DNA of 64,000 bases, taken from NCBI GenBank assembly GCA_022842645.1, contig JALHPE010000002.1, positions 149,047 through 213,046 of the forward strand, in the 5' to 3' direction. Positions 8,093-21,773 of this stretch are shown in pieces. A program made the position numbers and the translations under genes. The notes under the pieces were generated by a model, which was given only the letters and a program-made list of their open reading frames with translations, was not told the DNA's origin and made no database searches. This stretch comes from Minisyncoccota bacterium. Its GTDB lineage: Bacteria > Patescibacteriota > Minisyncoccia > Phycocordibacterales > UBA2100. The stretch's first letter is position 1. Every line of letters starts with the position of its first letter.

Positions 8093-8413
8093 ATGTATTC
8101 ATTCCCAGAACTAATCAAAAAAATACGAGAAGCGGCCGGCATGACGCAGGCCGATTTTGCGCGGGCGCTCGGCGTATCCGCCGTGCTAATTGCAATGGTG
8201 GAAACTGGGCAAAAAGAGGTTTCTAAAAATTTGCTTCGCAAAATTGCCGAGCAGTTAGATGTGCATCCGTCCTCCATAACACCTTTCCTGTTCGCGGATG
8301 AGAAAAAAGATACCCTGTCGCCAGTCGAGAAAAAGTTTATTCAGTGGGGCGAGCAACTACAGGAGCATTTGATAAAAGACCGTGCAAAACTTCTCAAAAA
8401 CCATGCGGCGTAG
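8093..8413 (+). CDS. XRE-family helix-turn-helix protein (Cro/C1-type)
   Basis: HTH_3-like GMTQADFARALGVSAVLIAMVETGQKEVSKNLLRKIAEQLDV; its stop overlaps the RT start (ccATGcggcgTAG). Confidence 0.7.
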   Translation: MYSFPELIKKIREAAGMTQADFARALGVSAVLIAMVETGQKEVSKNLLRKIAEQLDVHPSSITPFLFADEKKDTLSPVEKKFIQWGEQLQEHLIKDRAKLLKNHAA

Positions 8414-9401
8414 GCGATACCCAAAAATCCATATACAGAGCAAGAACGAGCTGGCAAAGCATATAGACAGCGCACGTCTCCCATATGAGAAAGCCCTGTC
8501 GCTCATAAACGATGTGCAAACTAACTTTGATACTTACTGGAAAGACCACCCTACGCAGTCCAAACCAGATAAACGTAAATGGGTACGAAATGCCGCAGGC
8601 ACACCTCTCGCACGGCTTCTTGATTTGATAAACGCAAAAGTTCTCACCCCCGCCGATCTGCTATTGCCAAGTTTCATCTTTGGCGGGATTGGCGGTTTGA
8701 ACCATAAAGCTGCCGTATTACATCTGCTCGGCAATAAGCGAAAACGGATTTTACTCAAACTAGATATAACGAGGTTTTTTGAGCAGATACGCCACGAGCG
8801 GGTCTATCACTTTTTCCGCGATAAGTGCAAATGCAGTGATAAGGGCGCAAAGATACTTGCTGACCTTTGCTGTGTCCGCCACGGCCCGAAGGAAAAACCG
8901 GACGCATATAAAACGATTGCTCGCGGCTTCGCCACTTCGTCGCGCCTTGCTGTCTGGTGCAATGTAGACACCTTCCTGCGCCTTGAGCGGCTTGTGCAAA
9001 AAGAATTGCGAGGCAAAGACCCCCGCATCGCCGTTTATGTAGACGACATCGGCATTACCGCAAGTAGGGCGTCGAAGGAGGATATGTTGCGGCTATATGT
9101 AAAAATAAAAACACTTTTGGAACAGGACAAGAATCAACCACTACCTCTAAACGACGACAAGACAAAAGTGATCTTCCATAGTGGCGAAACTTATGACAAA
9201 GACGGAAATTATCTTGGTAAATGGGCGTTTGAACATTTGGGCTTGCAGATGAATCGCAACTCCGTAACTATCGGTTCAAAAACGAGGGGAAAACTGGATA
9301 GAGCAACAAGCGAATTAGAAAAAAGTGATAAGAAAGACCAAACAACCAAACGACGCAGAGGAGCGTTCTTGAATTACAAACGGTATATCGAGGCAGAATA
9401 A
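8403..9401 (+). CDS. reverse transcriptase, retron-type-like
   Basis: RT motifs LLKLDITRFF (motif A Asp), RGFATSSRLA (retron QGxxxSPxLA-like), YVDDIG (YxDD), SVTIG (retron VTG-like). About 333 aa, the size of retron RTs. Overlaps the HTH gene by 11 nt. Confidence 0.75.
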   Translation: MRRRRYPKIHIQSKNELAKHIDSARLPYEKALSLINDVQTNFDTYWKDHPTQSKPDKRKWVRNAAGTPLARLLDLINAKVLTPADLLLPSFIFGGIGGLNHKAAVLHLLGNKRKRILLKLDITRFFEQIRHERVYHFFRDKCKCSDKGAKILADLCCVRHGPKEKPDAYKTIARGFATSSRLAVWCNVDTFLRLERLVQKELRGKDPRIAVYVDDIGITASRASKEDMLRLYVKIKTLLEQDKNQPLPLNDDKTKVIFHSGETYDKDGNYLGKWAFEHLGLQMNRNSVTIGSKTRGKLDRATSELEKSDKKDQTTKRRRGAFLNYKRYIEAE

Positions 9402-12060: not shown

Positions 12061-13782
12061 TCACCGATCGGGGGGAATTTCGTAATAGTTGATCAAAAAC
12101 TTTGCAAGATCGCTAAACGGACGCGCGAGCGTGCGTGAGGCGTACTGCTCACCGCGCGGTTCGATCGCATAGAGAAGCACGATGAAGCGCGGTTCGTGCG
12201 CCGGGAAATAACCAAAAAATGAGTGGAGCCAGCGATCGGTGTAGTAGCCGCCTCCGCCCGGGATCGCAATCTGCGCCGTACCAGTTTTTGCAGCGATAGA
12301 ATGATGTTCCTGCTTGAGCACGCCTTCAAGAAGTGCCTTGTCGTACACAGTAACAAGCATGTTTGTCACTGTTTCTGCCGTTTCGGGCTTAAGCACACGC
12401 ACACCATCGGCAACAGGAATCCTTCGCTCAATACCCGCTTCGGTGCGAATCGCAGTTGCTACATGCGGTTCGGGCATGACACCATCATTTGCCAAAGCGG
12501 CGAGTGCGCGAATCATTGCAATCGGCGTGATTGCGATCGATTGACCAAATGATGCTGAAGCAAAATCCACATCCGCCGCGCCTTGGACGAAGAGTGAATC
12601 AATCGCGCCAGCGATTTCGCCTGGAAGATCAATACCTGTCTCTTCCCCGAGCCCAAAACGCTTCATGTAATCAGCAAAAGCTGCGTTCCCCATTTTGTCG
12701 ACTGCAAACGAGACGCCCGTGTTGAGAGATTGGGAAAGCACTTCTTGCATCGGCACCACACCACGAGCCTTGAAATCGAAATTGCACAGTTTGTAACCCG
12801 TCTTTGTGATACAGCCCCGATCTTCGTATGTAGTTTGTGGCGTAATTGCACCCGCATCGATCGCCGCCGCAATGGTGAGAGGCTTTACAATAGAACCCAT
12901 TTCATAACGCCGCTCAACAAGGGGGTTGGTGAAAATGCTGACATCCTCCACTAAATTAAAAGTGTTGGGGTCAAAACTTGGCGCGAGTGCAAGCGCAAAA
13001 ATTTCACCGCTTTTTGGATCCATCACAATCCCACCTGCTTGTCGTGGGCTGTACCCCTCCATGACTTTTGCGATCGTGTTTTCAAGCTCGCGTTGCGCAA
13101 TCGGCTCAAGTGACGTAATAATGCTTCCCTCCTGTTCAGAAGGGTCAGCAACAAGCGCGCCGAGATTAGAAAAAATCTCTGCAAATGGATTCACGTAAAG
13201 TCCACTCCCTTCGTGGCGAAGTACATCTTCCCAATACCGCTCGAGGCCATAGGCACCTTCTTTGCGCGCACCGCGATAACTTACAAAACCGATCGTGTGC
13301 GCGGCGAGTGTTTCCCCGGGGTAAAAGCGCCATTCATCACGAACGGTAAAAATGCCAGGGATGTCTGCCTTCCGTACTGCGAGCGCTTGCTCATTATTTA
13401 AACGAAACACAGTGTCTTCGTAAGGATCCTCTTTTTTTGCGGCACTGGCTCTAAAACGAGTCTCATCAACCGGTACGATTGCGGAGAGTCGTAGAAGGGC
13501 ATCATCGGGATTCTCAAGTGCTCGCGGATCCATTGCGACACGCCAGCCCTTCTGCATGAGTGCCGCTGCCACGCGCTCACCATCCTTCTTTTTAAAGAAA
13601 ATCTCACCGCGCGGCGCATCATCCGTCACCGCCTCCATATACTGCCCCTCTGCTTTTCGGGCATATTCATCTCCTTTTATGATCTGGAGCTGGTAGAGAC
13701 GCCCCACAAGCACGATGGCGACAAACACCATCCCGATTGAAAGTAAGCGCACGCGAAGTACAAGCCGTCCACGCATGGCCAC
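12061..13782 (-). CDS. ftsI: peptidoglycan D,D-transpeptidase FtsI / penicillin-binding protein 2-type
   Basis: Transpeptidase motifs SIVK (SxxK), SLN (SxN), KTGTA (KTG); N-terminal TM; dcw cluster position. Confidence 0.85.
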   Translation of the reverse strand: MAMRGRLVLRVRLLSIGMVFVAIVLVGRLYQLQIIKGDEYARKAEGQYMEAVTDDAPRGEIFFKKKDGERVAAALMQKGWRVAMDPRALENPDDALLRLSAIVPVDETRFRASAAKKEDPYEDTVFRLNNEQALAVRKADIPGIFTVRDEWRFYPGETLAAHTIGFVSYRGARKEGAYGLERYWEDVLRHEGSGLYVNPFAEIFSNLGALVADPSEQEGSIITSLEPIAQRELENTIAKVMEGYSPRQAGGIVMDPKSGEIFALALAPSFDPNTFNLVEDVSIFTNPLVERRYEMGSIVKPLTIAAAIDAGAITPQTTYEDRGCITKTGYKLCNFDFKARGVVPMQEVLSQSLNTGVSFAVDKMGNAAFADYMKRFGLGEETGIDLPGEIAGAIDSLFVQGAADVDFASASFGQSIAITPIAMIRALAALANDGVMPEPHVATAIRTEAGIERRIPVADGVRVLKPETAETVTNMLVTVYDKALLEGVLKQEHHSIAAKTGTAQIAIPGGGGYYTDRWLHSFFGYFPAHEPRFIVLLYAIEPRGEQYASRTLARPFSDLAKFLINYYEIPPDR

Positions 13783-13796
13783 AGTATACGCGAACC

Positions 13797-14129
13797 TTAC
13801 AGGTCGTTTCGAGATTCCGCAGCGCCGAGAGCGCCCGGCATACGTACAAAACTACGGTCGTCAACAGGCACAAGCCCGAGACTCACGGCACGATCTTCAC
13901 CAATACCCTTCGAAAGTTCAAAATATTCCTGCTCCAGAAGACCAAGCTCGCTGCGCAAACTCTCACTCTCTGCCACTGCTTCGCGATAAGCAATGACATT
14001 CATAATGGAAAAAGAAACAAACCCCACATAGGCAAATATACAAACACCGAGCGCAATACCAAGGAAATGCAGTGCGTGTTCCTCGCCTCGAAAAGCGTGT
14101 ACTCGTATGGAAAAATTAAGTGGTTGCAT
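13797..14129 (-). CDS. ftsL: cell division protein FtsL-like (septum formation initiator family)
   Basis: Small single-TM plus coiled-coil protein located between rsmH and ftsI. Confidence 0.55.
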   Translation of the reverse strand: MQPLNFSIRVHAFRGEEHALHFLGIALGVCIFAYVGFVSFSIMNVIAYREAVAESESLRSELGLLEQEYFELSKGIGEDRAVSLGLVPVDDRSFVRMPGALGAAESRNDL

Positions 14130-14134
14130 GGTGG

Positions 14135-15067
14135 TTAGTGTTTCTGAATAATCCGAAGTTTTGCACTTCGCGCACGAGGATTCATTCGCAGCTCTTCTCG
14201 AGACGGTTTCAAGGGTTTTTTCGGGGTGAGTACTCCTCCCTCTGCTTCAAATTCCCGAAAGAGTCTCTTCACTTCTCGATCCTCAACAGAGTGAAAGGTT
14301 ATGACTGCCAGTCGCCCTTCTTTACGCAGGAGCCCCCAGGCCGCACTGATACCCTCCTTCAGCGCCCCCATTTCGTCGTTAACTGCGATCCGAAGTGCCT
14401 GAAAGGTTTTCGTTGCCGGATGCATCCGCCGGCTGGCGGAGCCCTTGCGATACCATACTGGCACCGAAGAACGAATCACCTCAGCAAGTTCGCGAGCCGT
14501 TTCTATAGGCTTTTCACGTCTTGCCTCGACAATGCCGCGCGCGATGCGTCGCGCATGCGCTTCCTCTCCCCATCCGTCGAACACGTTTACTAACGATTCT
14601 TCTTCCCACGTGTTCACAATCTCGCGCGCGGTGAGTACGTTCTCTCCGGGCTCGCCATACGTCATAAGAAGTGGCTCGTCGGCGAGAAAAGAAAATCCCT
14701 TCCCTTCCGCGAGTTGAAATCCGCTCCAGCCAAGGTCGAATAGCGCCTTATCCAATGCGGATATTTCGGCATCCTGCACAATTGAGGCAAGATTTCGAAA
14801 ATTTCCATGACGAAGAATTACGCGAGGAGACACACCCTTGAGTGCCACCTCGGCTCGTGCGAGTGCCGCGTTATCTGCATCAATTCCAAGAAAGATTCCC
14901 TGCTTTCCCAGTCTTTCACACATAAGGCGAGCATGCCCAGCACCACCGAGAGTCGCATCGAGGACGGTATCCGTCTCACGAATCTCCAGCCCTGTCAGAA
15001 TCTCATTTGAAAGAACACTGATGTGACTCGCTTCCCGTTGAACCACATCGCGATGCCGAAACGGCAT
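14135..15067 (-). CDS. rsmH: 16S rRNA (cytosine1402-N4)-methyltransferase
   Basis: MraW family motifs (HISVL, DATLGGAGHA); start likely MPFRHRDVV. Confidence 0.85.
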   Translation of the reverse strand: MPFRHRDVVQREASHISVLSNEILTGLEIRETDTVLDATLGGAGHARLMCERLGKQGIFLGIDADNAALARAEVALKGVSPRVILRHGNFRNLASIVQDAEISALDKALFDLGWSGFQLAEGKGFSFLADEPLLMTYGEPGENVLTAREIVNTWEEESLVNVFDGWGEEAHARRIARGIVEARREKPIETARELAEVIRSSVPVWYRKGSASRRMHPATKTFQALRIAVNDEMGALKEGISAAWGLLRKEGRLAVITFHSVEDREVKRLFREFEAEGGVLTPKKPLKPSREELRMNPRARSAKLRIIQKH

Positions 15068-15139
15068 CGGGTAGCTAGAGGATGAAAGACGTCGCGTGCG
15101 CATGACGATGATATCCCCTAGCAACCCGGTGCCACTGCG

Positions 15140-15222
15140 TTTGTAGACTGTAGTCTGTAGATTGTAGTTGAATGCATACGATTCCCGTCTTTAACTACAA
15201 ACTACTTTCTACAAACTACACA
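15140..15222. repeat. REP-like imperfect palindrome of TGTAGTTTGTAG/CTACAAACTACA units (copy 1)
   Basis: Left arm TTTGTAGACTGTAGTCTGTAGATTGTAGTT, right arm AACTACAAACTACTTTCTACAAACTACA. The 27-mer ACTACAAACTACTTTCTACAAACTACA is identical to 63157-63183. Confidence 0.7.
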
Positions 15223-15226
15223 CTGC

Positions 15227-15661
15227 TCATAAAGCGCCCACTTCCCCCAGTTTCTCGGCCAAGGCATCTGCTTTCTTTTCGATTGCCGCCTTGTACTCGT
15301 TCCAGCGCTTTGCGTCCCACACCTCGACCCGGTCCGAGACTCCTGCAAAGATCAGAGTTTTTGAAAGACCCGCAAATGCTCTCTGATGTTCTGGAATAAG
15401 AACGCGTCCTGCAGAATCCACTTCAACTTCCGCTGCTCCTGAAAGGATGAAGCGATTGAAGCCGCGTGTGTCTGCCTGTGCGAAAGAAAGTTCTTGCAAT
15501 TTTGCTGCCACTTTCTCCCAGCTCGAACGTGAATAGACGAACAAACAATTATCCAAGCCTCGCGTCATGACCACCTTCCTCCCGAGACCCGTACGGAATT
15601 GCCTCGGGAGAGAGACGCGGCTTTTTTCATCAAGAGTATGTTCGTATTCTCCGATAAACAT
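15227..15661 (-). CDS. mraZ: transcriptional regulator MraZ
   Basis: MFIGEYEHTLDEKSRVSLP... with a duplicated MraZ domain; first gene of the dcw cluster. Confidence 0.85.
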   Translation of the reverse strand: MFIGEYEHTLDEKSRVSLPRQFRTGLGRKVVMTRGLDNCLFVYSRSSWEKVAAKLQELSFAQADTRGFNRFILSGAAEVEVDSAGRVLIPEHQRAFAGLSKTLIFAGVSDRVEVWDAKRWNEYKAAIEKKADALAEKLGEVGAL

Positions 15662-15893
15662 GGCTAAATTTTTTGGGAGGATGGAACGTGCGCGCAACCG
15701 CATTTCCCACTTTCTCCCACTAGATTAGAGTATATTCCACTATATCCCACGCTGCCTCACTTATCCACAAAAAATACCATTCAAAAGCGTCATGAAATAA
15801 TAAGAGGCGCCCGTCAAATGCATTACAACGACGAACGTTTAGGATTACTGCAGGAGCTCCGCACTGGGCGGAGTGACTGGTGAAGGAGGCACT

Positions 15894-16258: not shown

Positions 16259-16290
16259 GCGGCCGCCCTCCGGGCGGCCGCGTCTTTTTT
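16259..16290. terminator. bidirectional rho-independent terminator
   Basis: GCGGCCGCCC-TCCG-GGCGGCCGC followed by TTTTTT; A-rich on the other side. Confidence 0.65.
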
Positions 16291-16292
16291 GA

Positions 16293-16718
16293 TCAAAGAT
16301 CACTTTCTCCTGGACAAGCATTTCCTCCGTCTCTAGTCAGCGTAAAATTTCCCCCGTACAACTCCTCACCTTGCACACGCACGATAGTAAGCAGTATTGT
16401 TTCGCGCGCATCGATGTCTTTAGTGATTTCCTCGAATCGACGCAACGTCATGTTGTGTATAGGAACAGCATTGATACCAACAATCCTATCCCCAGCTCTA
16501 ATACCCTGTTTGTAGGGCGAGCTCCCGCAGAGCACAGAGATAATGATCACCTTCCCAATGAATATCTGCGCCGGGTCTACGTTTTCACAAGACTCCTTAT
16601 CGTTGCATACGAAATGCTCTTCGTAGCTGAATTGGAAGCCGAAGCTTGGTTTCGTGCTTTCTGCAGACGCCACTACTACCATCCCGAAAAGGAAGATCAG
16701 TGCGAAAAGTCGAGCCAT
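16293..16718 (-). CDS. secreted PDZ-domain protein
   Basis: Signal peptide MARLFALIFLFGMVVVASA; PDZ-like GIRAGDRIVGINAVPI. Confidence 0.55.
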   Translation of the reverse strand: MARLFALIFLFGMVVVASAESTKPSFGFQFSYEEHFVCNDKESCENVDPAQIFIGKVIIISVLCGSSPYKQGIRAGDRIVGINAVPIHNMTLRRFEEITKDIDARETILLTIVRVQGEELYGGNFTLTRDGGNACPGESDL

Positions 16719-16781: not shown

Positions 16782-17312
16782 CTATATAACTTCTAAAGCC
16801 GGTGCCTCAGGAGACGACTCTTCAGTCGATGTCGGACTCTCTACTGGCGTCGATTCTTCAACTGATACGGGTTCAATTGGTTCCACTTCTTCCTGTGTCT
16901 CACTCGTCACATCAATGTCCTCGCTGGAAAGAGTATCTTGTGTCAGTTCTTGAGAGGCACCTTCTTCCGTCTGTTCAACGGACACAACCGCTTCGGACAC
17001 AGCACCACCAGAACCATCTCCACCACCCCCGCTCGAGGTTGGGTCTTCTGGGATCTCGGACCCTGCCTGATGTGGTGCCTCTTCTTCTTCGATAATCAAA
17101 TCTTCTGTCGTTGTACCGAGAACTGCAGCAAACATCATTTGCTCCGGAAGAACTGGCGGCGACCATTCACCTGCACGAAATACATTGCCAATGGAGCGTT
17201 CGATGTCACTAAAGTAGGAAATGGTTCCCCCTGCACCCCCTGCCATCATAGAAGACATGAAAACGAGTCCTAACACGAGCGCGGTTGATGTGCCGTAGGT
17301 GTCTTTATGCAT
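16782..17312 (-). CDS. possible nested or fused SipW-substrate protein (internal start MHKDTYGTSTALVLGLVF...)
   Basis: In-frame Met at 17310-17312, followed by a hydrophobic stretch and the AGGAGGT-ISYFSDIERSIGNVFRAG motif, then a low-complexity acidic tail; same frame as sipW with no intervening stop. Confidence 0.3.
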   Translation of the reverse strand: MHKDTYGTSTALVLGLVFMSSMMAGGAGGTISYFSDIERSIGNVFRAGEWSPPVLPEQMMFAAVLGTTTEDLIIEEEEAPHQAGSEIPEDPTSSGGGGDGSGGAVSEAVVSVEQTEEGASQELTQDTLSSEDIDVTSETQEEVEPIEPVSVEESTPVESPTSTEESSPEAPALEVI

Positions 17313-18008
17313 ACGAAATTGTGTGTGCCACCACTCCGCGTGCATGAACTGCGGCTTCATATACATTGGAATGAAAATCTCGTCCATCGCGCGTTCGCGT
17401 CCATAAAAGAGACGTAGAGGCGCACCCTCTTCATCCACTGAGCCTGCACCGCCTTTGGGCGTATCATCCTCGCCACGGCGTCTGCGCAGTGCCGCACGCG
17501 CTTCTTTTGCAATCGTGATTATCTCTTCAAGAATAATGAGTCCTGCTGGAAGTCCGATGAGAAGAGCAAAACCAAGCGGCTGGCGTGCAAAATCAAGCAC
17601 AAAGCCCGCGCCCGGCACATGTACCAATACTTTTCCTATCACTTCCCGCAGGGCCACAGAGTCTTGATCGATCTCCTCGTTCGCATCCCCCTTCGTGATG
17701 AAGATTCGTTCAGAGCCAGTGCCTTCCACAGCGACAATGCGGTGGGTGGTGGGAATCTCACTTGCGGTGTCGGGGCCAAAGGTGATTACGTCGCCAACGC
17801 TGTAAGAGAACGACGAGGAAGGCTTCACGATCACCAGTGAGCCCGTCGGAATCGCGGGCTCCATCGAACCCGATTTCACAATCTTAATCTCAATGTTCCC
17901 CGGAATCGGGAGCATCGAACCCACCAGAAGCCCCGCGACACCAAGGAGAGCCGCGATGAAAATAGTGGTGAAAAGTATGTTAATGAATTTGATCATATTA
18001 TCTTCCAA
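16782..18008 (-). CDS. sipW: signal peptidase I, archaeal/SipW type (S26B), with a ~240-aa in-frame C-terminal extension
   Basis: N-terminal TM, catalytic motifs KSGSMEP, THRIV and ITKGDAN, then a second TM. The extension contains ...ALVLGLVFMSSMMAGGAGGTISYFSDIERSIGNVFRAGEW (a SipW-cognate class signal motif) and an acidic S/T/E/P-rich tail. Confidence 0.8.
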   Translation of the reverse strand: MEDNMIKFINILFTTIFIAALLGVAGLLVGSMLPIPGNIEIKIVKSGSMEPAIPTGSLVIVKPSSSFSYSVGDVITFGPDTASEIPTTHRIVAVEGTGSERIFITKGDANEEIDQDSVALREVIGKVLVHVPGAGFVLDFARQPLGFALLIGLPAGLIILEEIITIAKEARAALRRRRGEDDTPKGGAGSVDEEGAPLRLFYGRERAMDEIFIPMYMKPQFMHAEWWHTQFRMHKDTYGTSTALVLGLVFMSSMMAGGAGGTISYFSDIERSIGNVFRAGEWSPPVLPEQMMFAAVLGTTTEDLIIEEEEAPHQAGSEIPEDPTSSGGGGDGSGGAVSEAVVSVEQTEEGASQELTQDTLSSEDIDVTSETQEEVEPIEPVSVEESTPVESPTSTEESSPEAPALEVI

Positions 18009-18993
18009 TCAAAAGCCGTATCTGGTTGATGATGTTGGTGGTCGAAGAGGTTGACGACGCGTTCCCTGTTATGACGGTTCCGCCGCCGCCCGCATAATTA
18101 CCGCCGGTATTCGAGCTTGAAGTTGTCGTTGAATTCACTACAGCATTGTTGTTCACGTTAATCGTGACGGGACCACCACAGCCTCCATTACACGCATATT
18201 CGCAGGTCGTCCCTTTCTTCACACAGGTGAATTTCTTGTTGTCTTTCACAGGGACAGCGCGGAATGAAATGTCGACTGAGAAGGAATCTGTTTGTGCTTC
18301 GTTACCCAAGACCGTCCCGTCACAAGTAATCGTCGCCGCGGGCACATTCACCACCAAATCTCCAGCGCACCACTCAATTCCGATGTAGCGTGTGCTTGAT
18401 GCGGTGAGCGGATTTCCTGTTTTCGAATCCGCAATCGCATAGGTCATCTGATTCAACACCTTTGTCGCCGCTTGTTTATTGGTCGACGTTCCGAAAAGTG
18501 GAATCTCCCCAACTTCAAAGATATTGTCTCCGTCGTCATACCAGCCGAAAAACTCTGTCCCATCAGCCAGTTCCCCCGAGTTCGCGCCGCCGGAATTGTC
18601 TGCAAGCAATTCCGGCTCATTTCTGCCGTTCTCTTTCTCCTTCAGTTTCTCAAAGTCCAAGCAGATCCACGCATCCTTATTCACGTGGAGTGAAATGGTC
18701 GCTTCGCCTCTGTCGCCTGGCTTCACGTCAGAAATGTTGAAGAATTTATCCGAGTGTGGATTGAGGTTTTTGAGATTCCACGTGGACGCGGGTTGGATGA
18801 CCCCATTCCACGAAGCCTTGCTGTCGATCTTCAGGTCAAACGCATTGCCCTTCTTACCTGTCGCAAAGGTGAATCCTGTCGCTTCTGTCCTAAACCCAAA
18901 CGCAAGCACCACCGCCGACATAACGAGGGCGGTGAATACTATGCGTGCTGAGAGTTTGAGACGAGACATATCGGTTTTCCAGCTAGAGTGCAC
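17998..18993 (-). CDS. TasA/camelysin-like secreted protein, paralog A (SipW-cognate signal class)
   Basis: Signal region ...AVVLAFGFRTEATGFTFATGKKGNAFDLKIDS; conserved FNISDVKPGDRGEATISLHVNKDAWIC and C-terminal WCAGD...TITCDGTVLGNEAQTDS...C module shared with paralogs B and C. Confidence 0.65.
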   Translation of the reverse strand: MHSSWKTDMSRLKLSARIVFTALVMSAVVLAFGFRTEATGFTFATGKKGNAFDLKIDSKASWNGVIQPASTWNLKNLNPHSDKFFNISDVKPGDRGEATISLHVNKDAWICLDFEKLKEKENGRNEPELLADNSGGANSGELADGTEFFGWYDDGDNIFEVGEIPLFGTSTNKQAATKVLNQMTYAIADSKTGNPLTASSTRYIGIEWCAGDLVVNVPAATITCDGTVLGNEAQTDSFSVDISFRAVPVKDNKKFTCVKKGTTCEYACNGGCGGPVTINVNNNAVVNSTTTSSSNTGGNYAGGGGTVITGNASSTSSTTNIINQIRLLIGR

Positions 18994-19021: not shown

Positions 19022-20386
19022 TTAGAGATCTACCACTTGATTCAAGCTCGCACACTGGAAGTTTGCGTTGTTGCGCTGTTGCACTGCGCTGAAGACGAGG
19101 CTGGAGGTAAGAATGTCCGTCTGCGCCACGTTGTAGGACGGACTCGTACCATCACAGGTAATCGAACCATCGCCATTCACTGTCTGTTCGCCGAAGCACC
19201 ATGCGCTTCCAAGATATGCGGTTGTTGTTGCCGTGAGCGGAAGACGCGTCATGCTAACGTTCTGAAAACCACCCGTGTAGAGCGAAGTCTCTCCACTTCC
19301 CGGCTCGTAGACCCCATCGCCGTCTGTATCCCCCCAGACAAAGAGTTTGATGAAATCTGAAAGCTCACCGTTTGGAATTCCGTCGAGGAGATCGTCCCCT
19401 GCTTCAATTTCTGGTTCGATCGGCGTATTTTCGTTATCGCTCACATTTTGCGTGAGCATACATGCGTATGCATCGTTGTCATACACGTGGAGCGAAATCA
19501 CGTTCGTGCCACGATCACCTGGCTTCACGTCGTTGAAGTTCCAGAACACATCGCCGTCGGCGAGATCTTTTTCACTCCAGAGTTTGCACTGACCGTTCGT
19601 GATGACCGTCTGACAATTGAGCTCTTGTACGCGGAAATCATCCACAAATGTACCCAGAGAGTTTGCAGTACCGAGGTCGGTAAAGCGTACGCGTGTGAGG
19701 TTTGTTGTTGCAGTCACCTGCACCGTTTCTTCCTGCCACGCAATCGGACCGCCGCCGCCCGCAACATTCCCTGTGTCATCAACAACCACACCACCCCACT
19801 GTATTTCGAGTCGATTGTCGGATGCAGGTGTGTTCGGACGTGGAGCAAACTTGTATTTAATAATGTAGTTCTTGCCCGGGACTGTCGGAATGTCTCTGTA
19901 GAACGAGACAGATGCTGGCTCCCCTTGCCCGCCATCGCTCGGACCTCCCCAATCAGTGTCGAGTTCTGCGTACTGGTCGCCCTCTGCCGCAGCGCCAACT
20001 ACATTCTCGTGATATTCCATCTTGGCGACGGCCGGACGATTTTGAGAACCGAACGTCGCCGGAATATCGCTACGCCACTCAACAGTCCACCCACCCGCAG
20101 GAGAATCGAAGATGTCCCACTGAGAACCGTTTGTCACTTCTGGATCTTCAAACCCTGCTCCCGAGATTGCTAAAAGATTCCCCGGCACTTCCACACACCC
20201 GTTCTGACACTCGTCTCCGTTATATGTCTGTCTGGTGTGGTCGATTTTCAGGTCGATCGCCCCTGCGGTGAACGTGTTTCCGGTCGAAGTTTCTGTATCG
20301 GAAAAGAACGCACTCGTGCCTGTCGCAACGGCACCTCCTGCCGAGACGATGAGGAGAAGCCCCAAAACTATTCTTGATATGTTCAT
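19022..20386 (-). CDS. TasA/camelysin-like secreted protein, paralog B, with an inserted beta-sandwich (carbohydrate-binding-like) domain
   Basis: AFFSDTETSTGNTFTAGAIDLKIDH signal motif; FNDVKPGDRGTNVISLHVYDNDAYAC; ~170-aa insertion ending ...TNLTRVRFTDLGTANSLGTFVDDFRV. Start chosen at ATG 20386 (the track uses an upstream GTG). Confidence 0.65.
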   Translation of the reverse strand: MNISRIVLGLLLIVSAGGAVATGTSAFFSDTETSTGNTFTAGAIDLKIDHTRQTYNGDECQNGCVEVPGNLLAISGAGFEDPEVTNGSQWDIFDSPAGGWTVEWRSDIPATFGSQNRPAVAKMEYHENVVGAAAEGDQYAELDTDWGGPSDGGQGEPASVSFYRDIPTVPGKNYIIKYKFAPRPNTPASDNRLEIQWGGVVVDDTGNVAGGGGPIAWQEETVQVTATTNLTRVRFTDLGTANSLGTFVDDFRVQELNCQTVITNGQCKLWSEKDLADGDVFWNFNDVKPGDRGTNVISLHVYDNDAYACMLTQNVSDNENTPIEPEIEAGDDLLDGIPNGELSDFIKLFVWGDTDGDGVYEPGSGETSLYTGGFQNVSMTRLPLTATTTAYLGSAWCFGEQTVNGDGSITCDGTSPSYNVAQTDILTSSLVFSAVQQRNNANFQCASLNQVVDL

Positions 20387-20402
20387 AATTGTTGTTTTTA
20401 AT

Positions 20403-20485
20403 GTCACGGATATTTCTTTGGTAAGAAATTCCGCAACCCCGCCTCAGCATCGACATGCTTCCGGCCTTGCGATGGGGCCCCGTCC
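20403..20485. promoter_or_regulatory. about 85-bp module, copy 1, with palindromic operator-like site GGATATTTCTTTGGTAAGAAATTCC (20408-20432) 25 nt upstream of the paralog B start
   Basis: Imperfect palindrome; the module is about 75% identical to 20585-20665. Confidence 0.5.
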
Positions 20486-20840: not shown

Positions 20841-21773
20841 CTAGCTCTGAGGATTGCAAGAGAAGTTCGGATTGTTTCGAGACTGCTCTACGTAGAATGT
20901 CAGGTCGGCATTCCATGAATCGGTTTGTGCTTCGTTGCCCATAGTCGCACCGTTACAAACGATTGGATTACCTGGAGTTGGAGTTCCAATATCGCCCGCA
21001 CACCATGCGAGACCAATGTAACTGGTTGAACCGCCCTCAATTGGGGTATCGCCACCCTCTGCAAGTGCCCACGTTGTGGCTGCGAGCGAGCTCGCAGAAA
21101 CGGGCCCACCAAGTGCTGTTTCGCCAAGTTCAAAGACGTTATCGCCGTCGTCTGTCCATGCGAAGAACTCAAGATTGGTGTCGAGATCTCCATTGTTAGG
21201 GGTTGCATCTTCCCCTACAAGACCTCCAGATTCATCTTCTGGCTCGGTAATGCTGTTATCAGCATCGCCAATGTTTGCAATCGATGCACACATCCATGCA
21301 TCATTGCTGCCGACGTGAATCGAGATGGTGTTTTCACCATTGTCGCCCGGCTTGATGTCATTGAAGTTAAAGAATTCATCCATGCCAAGTGTGTTTTCGC
21401 TCAGGTTACCCACTGGCCATGTGCCCGTACATGCCGAGCCTGCTGTTGGGAACTGCGCAGGATTTGCAAGATTGTATGCATCCCATTCAGTTTGCTCATT
21501 CATGTTTCCAGCTGCTACAGGAGAAGACGAAGCGTTCAGTGTCACACTCGTCTCTGGAATGTAGTGGTAGGTGGCACCAACGAGTGTGCAGACCATGCCG
21601 TTGTAATGAGCGACGCTATCGATCTGAAGATCAATATCGCCCGCTGTAAACGTATTTCCCGTCGACGTTTCCGTGTCGGAGAAGAATGCGCCCGTCGAGC
21701 TTACGACGACCGCGCCCACAAACACAATCATCGCAAGAGATGCGAGGATGCGTGTATTAAGAAGTGCTGTCAT
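20841..21773 (-). CDS. TasA/camelysin-like secreted protein, paralog C
   Basis: TM plus AFFSDTETSTGNTFTAGDIDLQIDS; FNDIKPGDNGENTISIHVGSNDAWMC; C-terminal WCAGD...IVCNGATMGNEAQTDS...C. Confidence 0.7.
   Translation of the reverse strand: MTALLNTRILASLAMIVFVGAVVVSSTGAFFSDTETSTGNTFTAGDIDLQIDSVAHYNGMVCTLVGATYHYIPETSVTLNASSSPVAAGNMNEQTEWDAYNLANPAQFPTAGSACTGTWPVGNLSENTLGMDEFFNFNDIKPGDNGENTISIHVGSNDAWMCASIANIGDADNSITEPEDESGGLVGEDATPNNGDLDTNLEFFAWTDDGDNVFELGETALGGPVSASSLAATTWALAEGGDTPIEGGSTSYIGLAWCAGDIGTPTPGNPIVCNGATMGNEAQTDSWNADLTFYVEQSRNNPNFSCNPQS

Follow-up and report, generated by a model that had tools for sequence, protein, structure and literature searches.

In Bacillus subtilis, the signal peptidase SipW cuts TasA at GTWA|AFND, and the new N-terminus (residues 28–38) is the donor strand that enters the next subunit (PMC9674648). 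TapA carries a 43-residue signal that is also cleaved by SipW, and its mature N-terminus, AFHDI, has been called 'nearly identical' to the AFNDI of TasA (Roske et al., PMC10151520). The same study described an immunoglobulin (Ig) fold with a C92–C188 disulfide and a negatively charged, flexible C-terminus, a low abundance matching that of SipW, an overlap between the tapA stop codon and the start of sipW, and a chaperone-like protein that colocalises with the membrane; tapA(1-57), which secretes just TapA residues 44–57, still supports biofilm formation. In Bacillus cereus, the SipW-processed accessory factor CapP (BC1280) initiates/controls TasA/CalY filament assembly (PMC13082335). Among the archaeal bundling pili, the minor component AbpB has been suggested as the source of the first complementing strand, and proteins of the TasA/camelysin family (PF12389) occur in Patescibacteria (PMC9245690). 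Here we describe a locus that is a fused, minimised architectural variant of this TapA–SipW–TasA type of system in Patescibacteria. It lies in a stretch of 64,000 nucleotides from an uncultured, ultra-small Minisyncoccota bacterium (GenBank assembly GCA_022842645.1, contig JALHPE010000002.1, positions 149,047 to 213,046 of the forward strand), hereafter the window, and its central element is one open reading frame (ORF) in which a SipW-type signal peptidase continues in frame into a module resembling a SipW substrate. A SipW–substrate fusion was not described in the literature that we searched.

A signal peptidase continued by a substrate-like module

The fusion ORF occupies positions 16782..18008 on the minus strand and encodes 408 residues from a TTG at 18008, with its stop codon at 16784-16782. 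Sequence inspection points to an ATG at 17996 as the probable start, giving a protein of 404 residues (P0001). This ATG sits 1 nt past the TAA stop of the upstream gene C (TAATATG), which suggests translational coupling. Residues are numbered below from the TTG (408-residue numbering) unless stated, while positions of alignment conservation follow the 404-residue numbering. Hydropathy revealed three hydrophobic segments, at residues 8–33, 145–166 and 240–262. The first two are the transmembrane (TM) segments that flank the peptidase domain. TM1 (17910..17987, minus strand) would run from inside to outside and was modelled by AlphaFold2 (AF2) as a helix at residues 2–28 with a predicted local distance difference test (pLDDT) value of ~80; TM2 (17511..17576, minus strand), supported by hydropathy and AF2, would run from outside to inside.

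The signal peptidase I domain of the SipW/archaeal type (residues 10–165; 17514..17981, minus strand) scored 98 bits on TIGR02228, above the cutoff of 51.85, and was modelled with pLDDT values of 80–94. Its catalytic boxes are KSGSMEP, the Ser box (17856-17876), TTHRIV, the His box (17733-17750), and KGDANEE (17673-17693), all on the minus strand, and the catalytic Ser (Ser48) and His as well as GDANE were invariant in an alignment of 93 relatives. The score on the Bacillus SipW equivalog NF046067 stayed below the cutoff (97.5 bits versus 190), placing the enzyme in the same broad type and in another orthologue group; in databases, relatives of the fusion are labelled merely 'signal peptidase I'. 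The protein thus shares with B. subtilis SipW an endoplasmic reticulum/archaeal-type catalytic domain between two TM segments, the Ser and His boxes and a dedication to substrates with TIGR04088 signals in the operon. However, B. subtilis SipW has ~190 residues with a short tail, whereas the fusion carries a further 240 residues that include a third TM segment.

An earlier note on this DNA, made from the letters alone, had described how the same ORF runs on for ~240 residues past the peptidase as a linker, a hydrophobic stretch with a cognate-type motif and an acidic tail. All of these parts were confirmed in the sequence, and the string quoted there, MHKDTYGTSTALVLGLVFMSSMMAGGAGGTISYFSDIERSIGNVFRAGEW, was found exactly, with its Met codon at 17310-17312. 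The linker (residues 167–239; 17292..17510, minus strand), assigned to the cytoplasm from alignment, charge and AF2, contains the motif LRLFYGRERAMDEIFIPMY (17361-17417, minus strand), which AF2 predicted to form a beta-hairpin. Next comes an internal signal-peptide-like segment (residues 240–264; 17217..17291, minus strand), composed of the hydrophobic ALVLGLVFMSSMMAGG and the Gly-rich AGGTIS and recognised by its resemblance to the signals of neighbouring gene products. It leads into the donor-strand-like motif YFSDIERSIGNVFRAGEW (residues 265–282; 17163..17216, minus strand), identified from TIGR04088, conservation and comparison with TapA and TasA. The remainder (residues 283–408; 16785..17162, minus strand) is a tail rich in E/S/T/V/P/G that ends in ...ALEVI; composition, AF2 (pLDDT < 50) and a tail alignment across relatives characterise it as acidic, disordered and probably extracellular. 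There are 13 K/R in the segment between hydrophobic segments 2 and 3, while residues 263–408 contain 2 K/R and 35 D/E. Based on this charge distribution, with a basic linker and an acidic downstream part, the third segment should cross from inside to outside. The predicted topology has the N-terminus inside, the catalytic domain outside, the linker inside, and the motif on the same membrane side as the catalytic domain.

A predicted SipW cleavage site within the module

The motif stands in the context …MMAGGAGGTIS|YFSDIERSIGNVFRAG, in which a hydrophobic region is followed by small residues at −3/−1 and then by the pattern [FY]F.D.E.S.GN.F.AG. The hydrophobic region of ~16 residues and the Gly-rich region mirror the signals of the neighbouring gene products A and B, IVLGLLLIVSAGGAVATGTSA|FF and ILASLAMIVFVGAVVVSSTGA|FF. 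The SipW-cognate signal model TIGR04088 gave a sub-threshold match to residues 255–282 (16.5 bits versus a cutoff of 19, E 0.007), and a fused relative (P0100) scored 25 bits on the same model. In the 93-sequence alignment, N271 was invariant, and T258, Y261, F262, D264, E266, S268 and A275 were at least 90% conserved. The pattern T-[ILV]-[SA]-Y-F-x-D-x-E-x-S-x-x-N-x-F-x-A-G followed the third hydrophobic segment in 113 of the 120 best relatives listed from a collection of 5.8 billion proteins. A signal peptide joined to a donor-strand motif is also what TasA/camelysin proteins (PF12389) and the archaeal pilins AbpA/AbpB have. Unlike them, the module is without a jelly-roll body and consists of just the strand and a tail, or of the strand and an unrelated Ig-like or lamin-tail domain (LTD) in relatives; PF12389 itself found no match in the fusion protein, where the motif runs into the disordered acidic tail.

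In the fusion the motif is internal (residues 240–282), unlike its N-terminal position in split orthologues, in which peptidase and module are encoded by two genes. The residues around the site were compared between the two forms, of which 30 fused and 37 split were scored. P3 was T in 27 fused and 33 split forms, P1 was S, A or G in 27 and 34, respectively, and P2' was F or Y in every one of them. Because T at P3, S/A at P1 and F/Y at P2' are equally kept in fused and split forms, we infer that SipW cleaves after S264 (S264|Y265), between nt 17217 and 17216. The split forms resemble ordinary pre-proteins, and the site residues are no less strict in the fused ones. When aligned on the F.D core, S264|Y265 is the position homologous to the experimentally known cleavage site of TasA, and an aromatic P2' is the feature tied to the SipW dependence of TasA (PMC10269814).

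The module exists as a free-standing protein encoded next to sipW

An 88-position profile, built from the cytoplasmic motif of the module, its third TM segment and its signal motif, was searched against 1.84 billion representative proteins. Besides fusions with the module at about residues 190–275, the profile found many free-standing proteins that carry the entire module N-terminally (about residues 5–90), as well as proteins that matched the TM-plus-motif half only, at residues 2–43. All 10 of the latter that were tested scored above threshold for PF12389, and the matched part was their N-terminal signal. The free-standing proteins with the whole module, which we call D, open with M...Y.R.R.MDDIFVP. 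Since this is the same motif, the LRLFYGRERAMDEIFIPMY-type linker motif belongs to the substrate module and not to SipW. Wherever DNA was fetched, the D gene lay directly downstream of a short sipW (178–246 residues); the sipW stop and the D start overlapped in several loci, for instance as ATGA in L006 and as TAATG in L007, or lay within a few bases of each other. The appended module is homologous to this free-standing accessory substrate, the product of the next gene after sipW in relatives.

D proteins are built from the cytoplasmic motif, a TM segment, the SipW-cognate motif, an Ig-like domain in many relatives, and an acidic tail; in most of them a GEVLGE motif precedes the tail, which is rich in Pro, Glu and Thr. 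AF2 modelled a split D as an N-terminal hairpin (pLDDT 75–89), a TM helix, a low-confidence, unstructured signal motif, an Ig-like domain with pLDDT > 90 and a disordered tail. An unstructured motif beside such a confidently modelled domain is how a strand needing a partner would look. Two Cys in the Ig-like domain are invariant in the D family, and some D proteins carry an LTD (PF00932). Pfam and NCBIfam scans of D proteins recognised only the N-terminal motif and the LTD, and the Ig-like domain matched no family. The copy in the window falls into an 'AG.W' subgroup that has lost the Ig-like domain, so that the motif is followed by a degenerate VLG (FAAVLGTT, 17109-17132, minus strand) in place of the family's GEVLGE and then by the tail. 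Domain-less versions exist among split D proteins as well (P0124, P0126 and L038).

For a species survey, one genome per species was scanned and the best 80 loci were classified by hidden Markov models, which replaced a motif regular expression that had missed divergent motifs (15 'none found'). The module was fused to sipW in 35 loci and split in 37; it went undetected in six, which by eye are divergent split copies, and two loci ran off the contig. The named genomes were all Patescibacteria, including Kaiserbacteria, Paceibacterota, Zambryskibacteria, Nomurabacteria and others. In a neighbour-joining tree of the SipW domain, a quick one that is indicative only, several clades contain fused and split forms intermingled, so the fusion recurs, which points to repeated fusion or fission. 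Taken together, the fused and split forms add a fifth component, TapA-like in kind, to a TasA-like operon that is widespread in Patescibacteria.

The ORF of the window is a genuine fusion and an evolutionarily recurrent one. The identical 404-residue protein was found on 12 contigs, and the three contigs examined came from three different sequencing runs. The 113 listed relatives with the pattern, at 36–78% overall identity, carry the third TM segment and the motif in the same in-frame architecture, and relatives at 40–78% identity keep one reading frame through the conserved linker. Among the explanations that the earlier note had offered, a genuine enzyme–substrate fusion is accordingly favoured by the 12 contigs, the listed relatives, the 35 fused species loci and the homology of the module to free-standing SipW substrates. 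The note had also suggested looking for a stop codon between peptidase and module in orthologues as a sign of two separate genes. Such stops and split orthologues do exist, but as natural, translationally coupled gene pairs they do not refute the fusion and instead support the identity of the module as a substrate.

Several small conserved motifs accompany the module. Y.R.R.MD[DE]IFVP is conserved as a cytoplasmic motif ahead of the signal-like TM segment and was modelled by AF2 as a beta-hairpin with pLDDT 70–89 in free-standing D proteins (P0128-P0230). In some split lineages, the C-terminal tail of SipW ends in a similar ...VDGIRPW or MDGIRP (P0104, P0109, P0113, P0115 and P0118), and the two counterparts could form a tether between enzyme and substrate. 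In most D proteins, whether fused or split, a conserved mini-motif, (F.A...)GEVLG[EA][ST], separates the acidic tail from the signal motif or domain ahead of it; it matched no known sorting signal or family.

Comparison with TapA and a model for fibre initiation

D resembles TapA in its SipW-type long signal and, if the predicted cleavage site is correct, in a mature N-terminus, YFSDI, to be compared with AFHDI of TapA and AFNDI of TasA. Full-length D relatives further share an Ig-like core with two Cys, an acidic disordered C-terminus and translational coupling to sipW, and the domain-less copy of the window corresponds to the minimal functional TapA(1-57). There are also clear differences. 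The window copy is without the disulfide-bearing Ig-fold core; tapA precedes sipW, whereas D follows it or, in roughly half of the species, is fused to it; a cytoplasmic motif like the conserved one of D is not known for TapA; and D occurs in a Patescibacterium, not in a Firmicute. CapP, likened to D by description, also combines a structured N-terminal domain with a disordered C-terminal domain (PMC13082335), but it is not fused to SipW and homology is not evident.

Based on these comparisons, we consider it probable, if by no means certain, that D is a cleaved initiator whose SipW-released strand primes the assembly of a TasA-like fibre much as TapA does. After membrane insertion, the SipW domain of the same or a neighbouring molecule would cut ...GGTIS|YFSDIE... 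at S264|Y265. The cut would free a polypeptide of 144 residues whose new N-terminus, YFSDIERSIGNVF, would be the equivalent of the TasA/TapA donor strand. This strand would enter the open groove of the first TasA-like subunit (A or B) and nucleate donor-strand-exchange polymerisation, as TapA does in B. subtilis, and the acidic tail, or the Ig-like/LTD domains of relatives, would come to lie at an end of the fibre. The fusion would fix peptidase and initiator at a ratio of 1:1 and site initiation at the peptidase. The fused and split forms lend genetic support, of the 'Rosetta-stone' kind, to the idea, put forward for B. subtilis, that initiator and SipW form a physical unit. With a product of 144 residues and a strand of 18 residues, the system would also be a small, testable model for how fibres start in bacteria without a chaperone-usher machine. 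Patescibacteria rely on attachment to other cells, which makes a surface-fibre system that has a dedicated initiator a plausible structure for host contact.

Several observations weigh against the cleaved initiator. A D-family profile searched against all PDB sequences, including TapA (6QAY and 6HQC), gave chance matches only, so that homology to TapA or TasA was undetected, and the fold matches of the D Ig-like domain were to generic Ig-like folds only. The analogy is thus architectural: D may work like TapA, but it is not a member of the TapA family. That A, B and C form fibres is read from the N-terminal motif and from sub-threshold PF12389 matches. In an AF2 monomer of the fusion, modelled with 93 homologues, the motif appeared as a low-confidence helix (pLDDT ~56), and docking onto the peptidase was not seen. 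Cleavage would leave the third TM segment covalently joined to the enzyme, where it might compete with other substrates. Finally, a cytoplasmic motif that is conserved and, in the models, structured is unusual for a disposable signal and could mean a lasting role of the N-terminal part.

This last point fits an alternative in which the module is not cleaved at all. The third TM segment would then be a permanent anchor that keeps the donor-like strand tethered to the peptidase, and the fusion would be an assembly platform at the membrane. The strand would fill the groove of a membrane-proximal TasA-like subunit, either permanently or in a chaperone-like manner until the next strand displaces it. 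TapA, chaperone-like and membrane-colocalised (PMC10151520), offers a precedent for such a function, and a fusion to the enzyme would bring cleavage and polymerisation to the same place. However, T-x-[S/A]|[Y/F]-F is as strict in the fusions as in free-standing D and in A and B, the canonical substrates, and an anchor needs no such site. A strand that begins at the membrane surface would reach little, and TapA and TasA work through the free N-terminus that SipW makes. We therefore regard an uncleaved anchor, in either variant, as rather unlikely, though to be kept in mind.

The tethering of a substrate-like motif to the enzyme also admits a pseudosubstrate, in which the segment would fill the active site of SipW and gate the access of A and B, with no role in the fibre. 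Such autoinhibition appears very improbable, as in about half of the species the same module is an independent protein of the secreted type, and a mere inhibitor would need neither Ig-like/LTD domains nor long tails. Internal translation initiation at Met233 (17312), by which one mRNA would yield the module as a second, separate protein, had been raised in the earlier note and finds some encouragement in an ATG ahead of the hydrophobic segment. It has little to recommend it as a conserved mechanism and deserves hardly any credence: the Met of MHKD is replaced by L, F or I in relatives, no Shine-Dalgarno-like sequence of the GGAGG type was found upstream of that ATG, and the product would be without the cytoplasmic motif that opens free-standing D proteins. 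An assembly or sequencing frameshift that joined two genes, the note's remaining suggestion, can be set aside despite the split sipW and D gene pairs of other lineages, since the protein is identical across contigs and sequencing runs and the frame is conserved in relatives and in the fused species representatives.

Upstream genes and a tentative assembly line

The gene order A-B-C-sipW-D is a conserved operon of Patescibacteria, with A, B and C TasA-like and B containing a choice-of-anchor-C-like part; the order was the same in the window and in three relatives' loci (L005, L008 and L009). Gene A (20841..21773, minus strand) encodes a SipW-cognate substrate (STGA|FFSDTETSTGNTFTAGDIDLQID) and TasA/camelysin-like subunit that scored 25.5 bits on TIGR04088, above the cutoff, and 21.9 bits on PF12389 over its N-terminal part only. 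Gene B (19022..20407, minus strand) encodes a second SipW-cognate substrate (GTSA|FFSDTETSTGNTFTAGAIDLKID) with a choice-of-anchor-C-like insert; it scored 27 bits on TIGR04088, again above the cutoff, and 36.5 bits on TIGR04362, below the cutoff. The choice-of-anchor-C-like region follows the donor strand directly in the window and stands at the C-terminal end in L005 (5588-6991) and L008, and from these sequences the orthologues of B look like domain-order permutations of each other.

Gene C (17998..18993, minus strand) was recognised from its sequence (…ATGFTFATGKKGNAFDLKIDS) and from relatives' loci as a TasA-like subunit that has a TM segment at its N-terminus but no FFSD.E.S.GN strand. 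The TM segment is followed directly by ...TG.TFATG..[FI]DLKIDS, so that the post-strand part is kept and the strand is missing, in the window as in L005 (7046-7999), L008 (3909-4853) and L009 (852-1847). In three of these four loci, the C-terminus is a conserved Ser/Thr/Gly-rich ...GGGTVITGNA...NIINQIRLLIGR. Of the 80 species loci, 78 had a tblastn match to C upstream of sipW, a count that may include paralogues of the A or B type, and a donor-less C was scored in ~49 of 80 by a rough heuristic that misclassifies some. Searched against PDB sequences, A and C gave chance matches only, and neither TasA nor TapA was among them.

With D as a strand that has no body and C as a body that has no strand, the operon suggests dedicated initiator and terminator or anchor roles, and gene C may encode a terminator or anchor subunit. 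As a tentative extension, more doubtful than the initiator role of D itself, the genes of the operon may together make up a complete, polar assembly line for a TasA-like pilus, with D as initiator, A and B as polymerising subunits and C as terminator or anchor. The strand-only D would be delivered once per peptidase and sit at the fibre tip with its acidic tail or adhesin-like Ig/LTD domains. SipW would free the donor strands of A and B at a time when the following subunit remains tethered to the membrane, giving growth from the base, and C, which combines an acceptor body with a TM segment and has no donor strand to offer, would stop growth and anchor the fibre in the membrane. In chaperone-usher and sortase pili, dedicated initiator and terminator subunits differ in whether they have a donor strand. 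An operon that holds a strand-only D and a strand-less C would, by analogy, follow similar rules, although protein families and machinery are unrelated. If true, the assembly line would be a signal-peptidase-driven counterpart of this tip/terminator logic in episymbiotic Patescibacteria.

Downstream genes

Directly after the fusion gene lies a gene for a small secreted PDZ-domain protein of 141 residues (16293-16718, minus strand), and the end of the fusion tail, ...ALEVI, resembles a hydrophobic C-terminal PDZ ligand. PDZ coupling was considered as part of the conserved system and rejected, as the only contigs that contained the PDZ gene were those of the same species. A strong terminator-like hairpin with 10 G-C pairs and a T run (16259..16281, minus strand) follows the PDZ gene and is the probable end of the transcription unit. 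The fibre operon lies immediately upstream of a cell-division and cell-wall cluster (mraZ, rsmH, a small gene, a penicillin-binding protein transpeptidase and murE; 12061-15703, minus strand), and relatives whose fusion protein is as little as ~42% identical still have the operon next to mraZ (L005, L010, L011 and L014). Near murE, the window contains an RVT_1 (PF00078) reverse-transcriptase gene (8382-9401, plus strand), equivalent to L001:10102-10721, which may be a reverse transcriptase of the group II intron or retron type.

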